IMG/VR virus record: IMGVR_UViG_2541047867_000011 | Coordinates: 1-21,616 of that record | From: a virus | Taxonomy: Duplodnaviria; Heunggongvirae; Uroviricota; Caudoviricetes | Length of the DNA: 21,616 nt | Direction: 5' to 3' (one strand) | Shown: positions 15,001-18,000 of the stretch, piece after piece | Numbering within the stretch: the first letter of the stretch is position 1 | Layout: every line of letters begins with the position of its first letter | Made by a program: the position numbers

Positions 15001-18000
15001 TGGGGCAACAAAAGGTCAGCTTGAAGCCTGGCAGGAGAATGCCATGTTTGATACAGGGCGTTACAGACGTAAAAAAATCCGGTACCGCGATAAGGTCACT
15101 GGAAAAATGGTAACGCTGGATAATCCACCGATCCCGGGAAAGCAATCGCTGGCGAAAGGTTCATCAATTGCCCTAGTCAGTCCGGTTGAGTTTTCGACAT
15201 CATCATGGCGACGCGCCGTTCTGTCTCTTGAAGAGCATCAGAAGGCGTGGGTACTGTGGGTATACAGTGAAAATCCGAGTTGGGATTATCAGGTGGTCAT
15301 TGCGAAATGGGCGTGGGATAAGTTTCAGGTGCATTTTGGCACCAGAAAAATTACAGGGAAAACGCTTGAGCGTCTGAAGAAATTAATCTGGCTGGCGGCG
15401 CAGGATGTCAGGGGGAGGATTACTGGGTGTGACGTCTACCAGCGACAGGAACTTGCCAGACTGTGTGGAGTTAAGTCAGACAACTGGAGCCACAATTATG
15501 CGCACTACTGGCGTGATATGTGCGACATTTTTAAGAACCTCGACAACGAATCTTTGATTTATACCATGAAAACAAGATCGCAACAAAAAGCGACCTTTTC
15601 GCGGCGGGTTATTGCAAAAGTCAATTAAATCGCGTACATTTCGTGTAAATCTGATATTTTGCTGATTTTGTACACGATGGCAAACTAAACAAAGCCTGCT
15701 GCTGAGCGGGCTATCTTTTGTCGTAAGTTGAGCGAAAGACCATCGATTTTACCTTGCTAAAACTATTCTGCTATTGCCGAGTTACCCTTTAGGTAATACA
15801 CTCATCTTATAAAAGAAAGTGGTTGTTAGCCACATAGGTTAGGATGTGCGCATACTTTGTTTGTGTGCTTTTTGTGTTTTATCTGTTAACGGAGGGGAGC
15901 ATGCCGAAATATCTAACACTTGCCGCTCGCGCGATCCTCTCACCTGAGAAGATCATCAAAAAAATTGCAGATATAGCTTCCATGTGTGATGGAAAAGAAG
16001 CTAAGCATGAAAGTGACAAGTTTTTCATTGATAGTAATGGTTCGATGGTTTTGAATCGCAACAACGCTGATGTGCAAAAGGCTTTCGCAGCCAATATTAA
16101 GGGATTGAGTACTAAGAAGAAGGGTTAGTCTTCTATGTGGGCTGCGCTGATTGTTATTGTTTTAGTTTGTGGTTATCACTATACCAACTGCCATTTGCCG
16201 TCACGATACCGTCAAAGCAAAGCGATCGGTTGGAATGCATACTTTGATGTTGCACTGAAAGGTGGTGAGTTTCTCATAAGTGGTATTCTTATCGCTGCCT
16301 TATTGGTTGTTGTTCTGTACGCTGGAATGTCACTTTGGAACATTCCAGCGTACTTGTTTGGTTGGTACGCTCCCTTTACTTTCGCCCATGACTTTCTCAA
16401 AATGCAAGTGTTTGGGTTGAGCATGTTCCCTGCTATGTCGATAGCTTTCACTATTATTGTAAGTATCGGGAAGGCATCAGAGGCAACCAAAAACCATAAA
16501 GACCCACAAAAGCGCAAGGCTATTTTTGAAGAAATTGCGGCTCATAGTGCCGTGGAAAATATCCTTCTTGAATCAGTTGAGCGTGGATTGTTATTGTTGG
16601 TTACACTGAAGTCTCGCAAGGTCTATGTGGGGATGATTGATGAGGCACGTTTCAATCAGTTAGATACTAACACATTGGTGCTAATCCCTTTTATGTCCGG
16701 GTACAGAGATAAAGATACTCTGACTTTTTGTGTTGAGCATAATTATGTGGACTACTACCTTAGTCAGGGTATCACATTAACTTCTGAGCCATTGTCAGTT
16801 TATCAGTTTAGGCATGTGTTGCCCTTCGATCAGATCGAATCTTTTTCGCTGTTTAATGTTGAAACATTCGAGACTTTCAAGGCAGGTATTGAAGGGAAGA
16901 AGGCCACTGAAGTACAGAATCAAACAAGTTAAGGTTGTTACCTCATTAATTAAACCCGCCATTGAGCGGGTTTTTTGATGCCCGAAGTGCGGTACATTAA
17001 ACGCGCTGGTAGTTATTAATATCGGTCTTTCAGCTTGCTGGCTTTTTCGACAAGAGTTATTGGTATGTCACGTTAACCAGAAAAGGGAAAAGGCATGCTA
17101 AAACAGCAGGATATGACCGAAACTGCCAGAGTGGTGTTTAATGAATTAAGCGTCACCGAACCGGCGACCGTCGGGGAAATTGCGCATAATACTTACCTTT
17201 CACGCGAACGTTGCCAGTTAATACTGACCCAGCTTGTTATGGCGGGTCTGGCAGATTATCAGTTCGGTTGTTACAGACGCCTTCCTCAGTGAAGGCTTTT
17301 TTATTTGTGGTAATGGGCGGCTGGTGGGTGTTAGCGGCACCTGCCAGCCATCTGCTCATGCGTTGGGTTCACAAGCAAACCTCAGGCCCACTGCTTTGCG
17401 CAAAAGCAGAATGAGCCTATCAGAGACAGGCTTAATGATCCATGCTTAATACTGTAAAAATATCCAGTTGTGAGTTAATCAACGCCGACTGCCTGGAATT
17501 TATCCGGTCGTTACCCGAAAATTCTGTTGACCTGATAGTTACGGACCCGCCGTACTTTAAAGTGAAGCCTGAGGGCTGGGATAACCAGTGGAAGGGCGAC
17601 GATGATTACCTGAAGTGGCTGGACCAGTGTCTGGCGCAGTTCTGGCGGGTGCTGAAACCTGCCGGAAGTCTTTACCTGTTCTGTGGTCATCGCCTGGCAT
17701 CTGATATCGAAATCATGATGCGTGAACGCTTCAGTGTGCTGAACCATATTATCTGGGCGAAGCCGTCCGGACGCTGGAACGGATGCAACAAGGAAAGCCT
17801 GCGGGCGTATTTCCCCGCCACAGAGCGCATTCTGTTCGCGGAACATTATCAGGGGCCGTATCGTCCGAAAGATGCCGGGTATGAGGCGAAGGGCAGGGCA
17901 CTGAAACAGCATGTGATGGCCCCGCTGATTGCTTACTTTCGTGATGCGCGCGCTGCCCTGGGGATAACGGCAAAACAGATTGCAGATGCCACAGGAAAGA

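Follow-up and report, generated by a model that had tools for sequence, protein, structure and literature searches.

A mobile two-gene cassette encoding a small protein and a membrane protein with a predicted Sm/Hfq-like barrel in the post-Q slot of a lambdoid prophage

The DNA stretch analyzed here, 21,616 nucleotides (nt) in length (positions 1 to 21,616 of the IMG/VR record IMGVR_UViG_2541047867_000011; hereafter, the window), is a lambdoid prophage of Escherichia coli that is of the Stx type but lacks stx. Immediately downstream of the gene for the antiterminator Q, this prophage carries a short segment that is almost certainly a mobile two-gene accessory cassette in place of the tR' hairpin, that is, a moron, an extra gene block in the phage backbone, as Hendrix and colleagues use the term. 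The cassette encodes a small soluble protein of 75 amino acids (aa) and an inner-membrane protein of 265 aa. The latter combines a membrane anchor with a predicted cytoplasmic beta-barrel of the Sm/Hfq type, and the balance of the evidence tilts slightly toward an anti-phage role of the pair. The key observations on the insert, the two proteins, the spread of the family and the likely mode of expression are described below, followed by the comparison with known systems and the assessment of the competing explanations.

An insert at the tR' position

The limits of the insert follow from the alignment with a sibling prophage in which the slot is empty (NZ_CM166341, denoted L173). In the blastn comparison, homology ends at position 15688 and restarts at 16966, and the insert therefore spans positions 15689-16965 on the plus strand, 1277 bp in total; these are the boundaries that the earlier note on this DNA proposed to obtain from related prophages. 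In the sibling, Q is directly followed by a strong hairpin and then by a gene for a 65-aa protein, and the insert takes the place of that hairpin, the sibling's tR'. The GC content of 15689-16965 is 0.413, compared to 0.523 in the left flank and 0.522 in the right flank, so that the visual impression of an AT-richer cassette is borne out by calculation. Among the sliding windows of the same size within the window, 2% have a lower GC content, those near 4750-6000. The GC content at third codon positions is 0.43 in each of the two cassette genes and 0.52-0.59 in the Q, RusA, DUF968 and methylase genes. Thus, the segment combines the features of a moron, namely, insertion between backbone genes that are adjacent in relatives, deviant composition and a terminator at 16952-16976.

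The same slot is empty in some siblings and is occupied by other cargo in a second one (NZ_CP146653, L174:1227-1940), where a different, single gene encodes a 237-aa protein (WP_000999911.1) without a Pfam match; therefore, the slot at tR' exchanges cargo, and this position behaves as a cargo-exchange hotspot. The assignment of the cassette to a moron slot after Q is thus upheld, by the siblings as well as by the occurrence of the pair in unrelated cargo slots elsewhere. The cassette is present in 14 of the 5426 complete E. coli genomes, and 2429 of these genomes have flank matches, from Q to the methylase. The region is 100% identical to a prophage of E. coli strain AR_0372, and in a 100%-identical E. 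coli prophage, RefSeq lists the same two coding sequences (CDSs), both labeled hypothetical protein. DNA similarity with the nearest cassettes from outside E. coli is limited to 15891-16877, a range that starts at the Shine-Dalgarno (SD) sequence of the small gene and stops shortly before the large gene ends; the 200-nt leader upstream lies outside the conserved mobile unit.

The two genes and their products

Both open reading frames (ORFs) are located where the earlier note had placed them, the small gene at 15901-16128 and the large gene at 16135-16932, both on the plus strand, with RefSeq CDSs concurring with the ORF calls for each. The claim that both genes possess strong SD sites of their own holds for the small gene, with its SD sequence GGAGGGGAG ending 1 nt before the ATG and its GGAGG core 5 nt from it, but not for the large gene, the SD of which is weak. 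The large gene starts 6 nt past the stop codon of the small gene, and given this short gap, it is probably translationally coupled to the small gene.

The AlphaFold2 model of the large protein (predicted local distance difference test score, 87.9; predicted template modeling score, 0.70) contains helices 2-19, 33-68 and 97-122 that span the hydrophobic segments, two linker helices, a barrel at approximately 151-240 and a terminal helix. From the model helices, hydropathy, charge and regional conservation, the membrane part was delineated as aa 1-112 (16135-16470, plus strand), consisting of the transmembrane (TM) helix TM1 (2-19), a cytoplasmic loop (20-44, charge +4), TM2 (45-65), a periplasmic loop (66-91) and TM3 (92-112). 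TM1 is short (mean Kyte-Doolittle hydropathy of 1.49), and therefore there are two or three TM helices; of the three-helix description in the earlier note, the membrane protein stands, whereas the exact count is less certain. Given the charge of +4 in the loop 20-44 and of +7 just past TM3, this loop and the C-terminal domain are assigned to the cytoplasm.

The soluble C-terminal domain that the note had recognized is indeed present and is now seen as an Sm/Hfq-like beta-barrel (aa ~151-240; 16585-16854, plus strand), a feature that was invisible to a reader of the sequence alone: the predicted structure includes a small, bent, five-stranded beta-barrel of the Sm/LSm/Hfq type. The barrel carries the motifs L-K-S-R-K-V-Y-x-G and S-G-Y-R-x-K-D, with the invariant residues mapping to L158-K-S-R-K-V-Y-x-G166, S188-G-x-R191-x-x-D194 and Y204. 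The closest counterparts of the domain are the Sm/LSm/Hfq barrels and also the WYL ligand-sensing domains, the likeness being one of predicted fold. The large protein differs in lacking an Sm1/Sm2 or Hfq sequence signature, in being tethered to the membrane and in having additional strands as well as a helix at the C-terminus. No match to an Sm, LSm or Hfq family of Pfam was detected at E<=0.1 for this protein, nor was any detected among 48 relatives; a sequence-profile search of the Protein Data Bank returned nothing significant (YaeO/Rof at E 0.11), and a Foldseek search against BFVD yielded weak matches, the best (E 3.4e-4) to an unnamed protein. In PHROGs, the large protein matches phrog_3630, a family of unknown function (1.6e-59).

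Across 48 diverse members of the family, the Sm core is the most conserved region (0.50), closely followed by TM1 (0.49) and the loop on the cytoplasmic side (0.46), whereas the scores drop to 0.27 for TM2, 0.23 for TM3 and 0.19 for the periplasmic loop, which indicates that the constrained surface is the cytoplasmic one.

The small protein is basic (isoelectric point of 9.7) and soluble, and has no signal peptide. Its predicted structure consists of low-confidence N-terminal helices, a conserved and confidently predicted beta-hairpin (residues 41-51) and a C-terminal helix (56-74), and the motif D-x-x-G-x-x-x-L-N-x-x-N-x-x-V is conserved; a fold search with this protein gave no informative match.

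Both ORFs are under purifying selection. In comparisons with cassettes of ~70% identity, the proportion of synonymous differences is saturated at 0.71-0.88 whereas that of non-synonymous differences is 0.16-0.38. An E. coli allele of 97% identity differs by 18 synonymous versus 6 non-synonymous codon changes; the non-synonymous changes in the large gene affect TM2, TM3, the periplasmic loop between them and the C-terminal tail of its product, and the small protein accounts for the sixth, S27F.

A widespread, mobile gene pair

A word-indexed search with the large protein retrieved 82 homolog clusters, all annotated as hypothetical, among which the named ones all come from Enterobacterales. The full profile search expanded the family to 2748 representatives at 50% identity with E<=1e-3, of which 1709 reach E<=1e-10. 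Scans confirmed 236 matches among the IMG/VR contigs and another 121 among the GTDB species genomes, with Psychrobacter, Snodgrassella, Advenella, Shewanella, Pseudomonas, Legionella, Acidobacteria and Balneolaceae among the taxa represented.

In 136 of the 168 loci, a hidden Markov model (HMM) of the small protein detects a homolog directly upstream of the large gene, separated from it by -16 to +35 nt; these paired loci extend from Enterobacterales to Psychrobacter, Snodgrassella, Advenella and Shewanella. Among 13 of the other 32, most distant loci, all eight with readable neighborhoods, including those from Acidobacteria, Legionella and Pseudomonas, possess an upstream ORF of 59-85 aa, and these ORFs share a pattern of a glycine-centered hairpin followed by a helix (G-x-x-h-x-h...helix). 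The two genes form a conserved pair that travels as a unit among cargo slots in unrelated prophages as well as in small islets of the chromosome. Seven loci (L078, L095, L111, L123, L125, L126 and L132) show the large gene split into two or three ORFs by a frameshift or stop codon, with the small ORF kept upstream, a hint that some hosts tolerate, or select for, the loss of the membrane protein.

The carriers include lambdoid and P2-like prophages as well as prophages of siphoviruses and myoviruses, and the position of the pair varies. The window copy lies after Q; in Hafnia, the pair follows the lysis genes and precedes the small terminase gene Nu1; in Proteus prophages, it lies between the tail chaperone and tape measure genes or after the latter; and in an ENA locus, it separates the baseplate and tail-fibre genes. 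It is also found beside the S24 repressor and the integrase, in small chromosomal islets with no phage genes nearby, and in the gpA-portal hotspot of P2-like phages, that is, the interval between the replication nickase and portal genes, as in SEN4/SEN5, Klebsiella ST15-OXA48phi14.1 and two further loci (L175/L176). In some P2-like phages, the pair is the sole cargo of this hotspot. The window copy itself is outside it, in the post-Q slot.

The gpA-portal interval is a validated defense hotspot because 4 of the 21 functionally selected E. coli defense (PD) systems map to this location (PMC9519451); in the analogous hotspot of P4, 6 of 8 randomly chosen loci without a known function protected against phages (PMC13586616). 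In the Klebsiella phage, the pair is directly followed by a 69-aa gene and then by a gene for a 477-aa TIR protein (gp15-gp16; L003:6853-8492), the latter protein matching the PADLOC model bSEFIR (6.9e-103), so that the hotspot there holds the pair plus a known defense gene. The possibility that gp13-gp16 of this phage form a single known multi-gene system was considered and rejected, given that gp16 alone matches (bSEFIR).

Several further observations concern individual members of the family. Two distant members outside prophages adjoin genes of defense type, recognized as such by eye from their motifs: in Methylotenera, a gene for a reverse-transcriptase-like protein with a YVDD motif (L158:8788-9816, minus strand), and in Acidobacteria, a gene for a 1186-aa CHAT/caspase-like protein (L139:3921-7481, plus strand). 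Homologs of the small partner, 53-74 aa long, are often labeled "multidrug ABC transporter ATPase" in public records (P0271, P0279, P0283, P0284, P0287, P0289, P0292, P0296, P0300, P0301, P0304 and P0305), evidently a propagated misannotation.

Hairpins, promoter and expression

Two hairpins frame the cassette. The tR'-like hairpin that the earlier note described after Q is present at 15693-15712, with a folding energy (dG) of -14.2 kcal/mol and a z-score of -3.5; it has an 8 bp stem with one G-U pair and, together with the AUCUUUUGUC U-tract, forms the left edge of the insert (15693-15722, plus strand). The intrinsic terminator at the 3' end (16952-16976, plus strand) consists of an 8-bp stem, a 6-nt loop and a U-run (dG -12, z-score -3.0). 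For neither hairpin does any shuffled sequence fold as well. The rho-independent terminator attributed to the cassette thus exists, but its T-tract comes from the backbone: according to the junction mapping, the 3' arm and the T-tract lie in sequence shared with the backbone tR' region, and this second terminator sits where the sibling has its tR'.

The putative late promoter PR' (TTGCAA-17 nt-TACATT; 15612-15640, plus strand) is assigned by position and by analogy with the lambdoid PR'. It overlaps the 3' end of Q, belongs to the backbone rather than to the insert and is retained in the empty-slot sibling as TTGCAA-17-TACGTT; with 8 of 12 consensus matches, it falls under the threshold of the sigma-70 consensus scan. 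The short leader that would be transcribed from PR' and ends in the first hairpin (15644-15714, plus strand) is homologous to the sibling sequence up to 15688. It shows a full-length, sub-threshold Rfam match to isrJ (21.7 bits versus the gathering cutoff of 37; E 0.44), and the Rfam scan of the insert yielded sub-threshold matches only. isrJ is a Salmonella small RNA (sRNA) encoded in a prophage; sRNAs of the isrJ type may be nothing more than leader RNAs of lambdoid PR'-tR' regions.

A crude consensus scan of the plus strand found no sigma-70-like promoter in 15713-15900 or inside the insert, so that a promoter of its own is not supported for the cassette in the window prophage, and expression therefore probably depends on PR' and Q. 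Under the proposed scheme, constitutive PR' would drive the cassette at a low level in lysogens, by read-through of the first hairpin, and at a high level after antitermination by Q. More generally, the tR' slot of Stx-type prophages swaps cargo, and genes inserted there could use PR' and Q for their expression.

Comparison with known systems

Neither protein has a match in Pfam, NCBIfam or PADLOC, and those in PHROGs are to families of unknown function; at E<=1, PADLOC-DB v2.0.0 yielded no match for either protein or for their P2-like homologs. The absence of a recognizable phage function, as read from the sequence, is thus confirmed in that no characterized structural, lysis, exclusion or defense family is matched. 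The designation of the cassette as undescribed requires a qualification: there is no characterized family, but homologs have been cataloged, unnamed, in a supplementary table, as P2-hotspot systems #43, which occurs 93 times and is labeled "2 TM", and #57, which occurs 75 times (Rousset et al. 2022, Cell Host Microbe, Table S5B). The #43 protein is a homolog of the window large protein with 37% identity over the full length (E 6e-66), and #57, listed with a 78-aa partner, matches the family profile with a probability of 99.9% in hhalign. Like the window pair, both are prophage cargo, but their location is the gpA-portal hotspot of P2 and not the post-Q slot of lambdoid phages. Both systems are cataloged only, with no Pfam assignment, and their sequences are absent from the paper's file of cloned and tested systems. 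In the parts of the supplementary tables of DefensePredictor and Vassallo 2022 that were covered, there is no matching sequence; the systems of Brenes & Laub 2025 were outside the comparison, and those described in the 2026 Nucleic Acids Research paper on P2/P4 are others.

The closest link to a named domain is with DUF6338 (PF19865), to which five distant family members align from TM1 into the Sm core (profile positions 8-154), with scores of 12.7-23.2 bits that are all under the gathering threshold of 26.5; the window protein itself has no match. DUF6338, like the present family, is an uncharacterized membrane protein.

As a working analogy, the abortive-infection pair RexA/RexB of phage lambda is also a prophage two-gene operon: the first gene encodes a cytoplasmic partner, the gene right after it a polytopic protein of the inner membrane, and the trigger is presumed to be cytoplasmic, as we propose for the window pair. 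To our knowledge, Pfam includes models of both RexA and RexB, and the Pfam scans revealed no similarity between these and the window pair. The partner in the window pair is also far smaller (75 aa versus ~280 aa in Rex), and the membrane protein contains a large Sm-like domain that RexB lacks. Another group for comparison, the superinfection-exclusion morons of prophages, includes HK97 gp15, P22 SieA/SieB and T4 Imm, inner-membrane proteins encoded in dispensable inserts, some of them within tail gene clusters, a position that matches the Proteus and ENA loci of the window family; HK97 gp15 is cited as a superinfection-exclusion moron (PMC11364771). In contrast to the window pair, which is obligate and combines a conserved cytoplasmic domain with a variable periplasmic loop, these are single small proteins, with no homology to it. 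The architecture of the family, as modeled, with a membrane anchor, an Sm-like barrel and an obligate small partner, seems to have been previously unremarked.

Possible functions of the pair

The explanation that we favor, with a probability somewhat above even, is an anti-phage role of the pair, in defense or exclusion, at the inner membrane. This inference draws on the homologs in the gpA-portal interval, the validation of that interval as a defense hotspot and the outcome for 6 of 8 loci in the P4 hotspot. Within such a role, an abortive membrane effector and an entry block each have a fairly low probability, that of the former being marginally higher. In the mechanism that we propose, the large protein would assemble via its Sm-like domain into a ring-shaped membrane complex, and the small protein would bind the cytoplasmic face of the large protein as a regulator or sensor. 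During infection, the complex would recognize a cue in the cytoplasm, for which nucleic acid or nucleoprotein of the phage at the membrane is the most plausible candidate, and would then either damage the membrane, resulting in abortive infection, or block genome entry, resulting in exclusion. The conserved cytoplasmic face, combined with the variable periplasmic loop, suggests that the cue is sensed inside the cell, and the basic invariant residues, together with the fold, suggest a nucleic acid or another anionic ligand.

An even broader proposal, which we consider speculative and probably incorrect in its full form, is that the family represents a new class of membrane-based phage immunity. 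Here, a tethered Sm/Hfq-like ring would sense phage nucleic acid or nucleoprotein at the cytoplasmic face of the inner membrane, and a hairpin-helix partner of 50-100 aa would restrain or arm it, with entry block or membrane collapse as the outcome; the class would comprise ~2700 clusters at 50% identity in Proteobacteria, Acidobacteria and Bacteroidota-like lineages, and would provide the first function for the DUF6338 proteins, to which it is related.

Several observations weigh against an anti-phage role. The case for defense is one of guilt by association, and it is in this sense that the earlier designation of the cassette as an accessory or defense candidate is supported by the homologs in the P2 hotspot. 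None of the 5027 PADLOC models matches the large protein, and none matches any of its 48 diverse relatives at E<=0.01; literature searches by accession, by DUF name and by fold combined with defense terms found no functional data for any family member. The neighbors of 39 dereplicated loci (149 ORFs) are phage genes, methyltransferases and few canonical defense genes, the matches in PADLOC and PHROGs including a nickase, portal, integrase, terminase and one SNF2 helicase; the context is thus one of phage genes, with no clear enrichment in defense islands, the ORFs being crudely called and the comparison having no background control. The TM helices are poorly conserved and lack charged pore-lining residues, which lends little support to a gated pore. 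Furthermore, by analogy with stx in related phages, the default expectation would be late, Q-dependent transcription of the cassette, and the crude consensus scan detected no promoter upstream of three other cassettes (L175, L005 and L006) either; expression in lysogens, which prophage defense would need, is therefore unproven.

The same features of expression are what a function in the phage life cycle would predict, whereby the pair would be a late membrane factor of the carrier phage that affects lysis timing, remodels the membrane or protects the induced cell or the progeny. Lying between PR'/tR' and the late genes and with no promoter detected, the cassette should be co-transcribed with the genes for lysis and structural proteins once Q has acted, and in other phages, the pair resides inside the tail or lysis-packaging regions, co-oriented with late operons. 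Nevertheless, we consider such a function unlikely: the cassette is absent from close, otherwise intact siblings and is therefore dispensable, the pair is also found in the P2 gpA-portal hotspot, beside the repressor and integrase and in chromosomal islets that lack neighboring phage genes, and the Pfam and PHROGs comparisons reveal no similarity to holins, antiholins or spanins. An addiction module resembling toxin-antitoxin (TA) systems, in which a toxic membrane protein is neutralized by an abundant small protein and stabilizes the carrier element, with no dedicated anti-phage role, would account for the arrangement of a small upstream gene with a strong SD and a coupled larger gene with a weak one, for the high mobility of the pair and for the seven loci in which the large gene is broken and the small ORF kept. 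Against this scenario, to which we assign a low probability, the pair resembles none of the known TA families represented in Pfam, NCBIfam and PADLOC, and the small protein does not have the DNA-binding fold typical of type II antitoxins; moreover, many TA-like pairs in such hotspots prove to be defense systems, so that addiction overlaps the anti-phage explanation.

A comparably low probability applies to a lysogenic-conversion factor unrelated to phages, in which a membrane-bound Sm/Hfq-like binder of RNA or another ligand, with its partner, would alter host physiology, such as stress tolerance, the envelope state or the regulation of host RNAs. The modeled Sm/Hfq-like fold and the conserved K159, R161, K162, R191 and K193 would fit the binding of a nucleic acid or an anionic ligand, and related phages carry stx in the post-Q slot, the tR' slot lying just upstream of stx. 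However, both products of the cassette are cytoplasmic or inner-membrane proteins, neither of them secreted, Sm1/Sm2 and Hfq motifs are lacking along with any Pfam LSM/Hfq match, and the distribution of the family tracks phage cargo hotspots rather than host lineage or niche. Finally, the succession of three TM helices and an Sm-like beta domain is superficially reminiscent of MscS, which has 3 TM helices and an Sm-like middle beta domain and forms a heptameric ring, raising the question of an MscS-like mechanosensitive channel or another ion channel acquired by phages. Such an origin is extremely improbable: none of the 58 family members scanned matches the Pfam MS_channel family, and the MscS-like channel was rejected upon hhalign comparison of the family profile with E. 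coli MscS (a sequence not drawn from a database record), which gave a probability of 0.1%.

Should the anti-phage role hold, the pair would constitute a widespread two-gene system that current defense annotation misses, there being no PADLOC model for it. Its effector would combine a membrane anchor with an Sm/Hfq-like barrel, an architecture for which no link to immunity has been found so far, and a family of ~2700 protein clusters would gain a role, with a hint for DUF6338. If the pair turns out to have no role in defense, an Sm-like protein that is tethered to the membrane and shifts among phage cargo slots as part of an obligate pair would still represent a piece of unexplained, testable phage biology. 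The cassette is a well-supported candidate that is cheap to test, one of many such, and is akin to the prophage-borne, membrane-acting pairs of accessory or defense genes.

Other features of the window

Upstream of the cassette, the backbone encodes a DUF968 protein (13575-14570), RusA (14583-14942) and the antiterminator Q (14933-15628; PF06323, 1.5e-83). Downstream of it lies the gene for the 65-aa winged helix-like protein (17095-17292, plus strand; phrog_331, with a weak TrmB match), which belongs not to the cassette but to the backbone stretch that separates tR' from the methylase, because it is found in the siblings with an empty slot. Some RefSeq records name this protein "TrmB family transcriptional regulator", and the gene carries a terminator-like hairpin of its own at 17279-17296. 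It is followed by an N6/N4 DNA methyltransferase gene (17442-18491) and three tRNA genes (18541-18790, plus strand) with the anticodons CAT (Met according to ARAGORN, Ile according to RefSeq), Arg-TCG and Arg-TCT. The tRNA trio is arranged as in Stx phages, and the matching genome has no stx gene downstream of it, only a partial pseudogene and a nanS-p-type esterase gene, followed by the lysis genes.

A second AT-rich stretch, at 4600-6300, has the lowest GC content of the window (0.39-0.41) and contains minus-strand ORFs at 4924-5505, 5511-5699 and 5894-6259 that encode proteins of 193, 62 and 121 aa without Pfam matches. Located just past a helix-turn-helix gene (6388-6891), itself beside the gene for a LexA-like repressor (6995-7726), this stretch may represent further accessory cargo near the immunity region.

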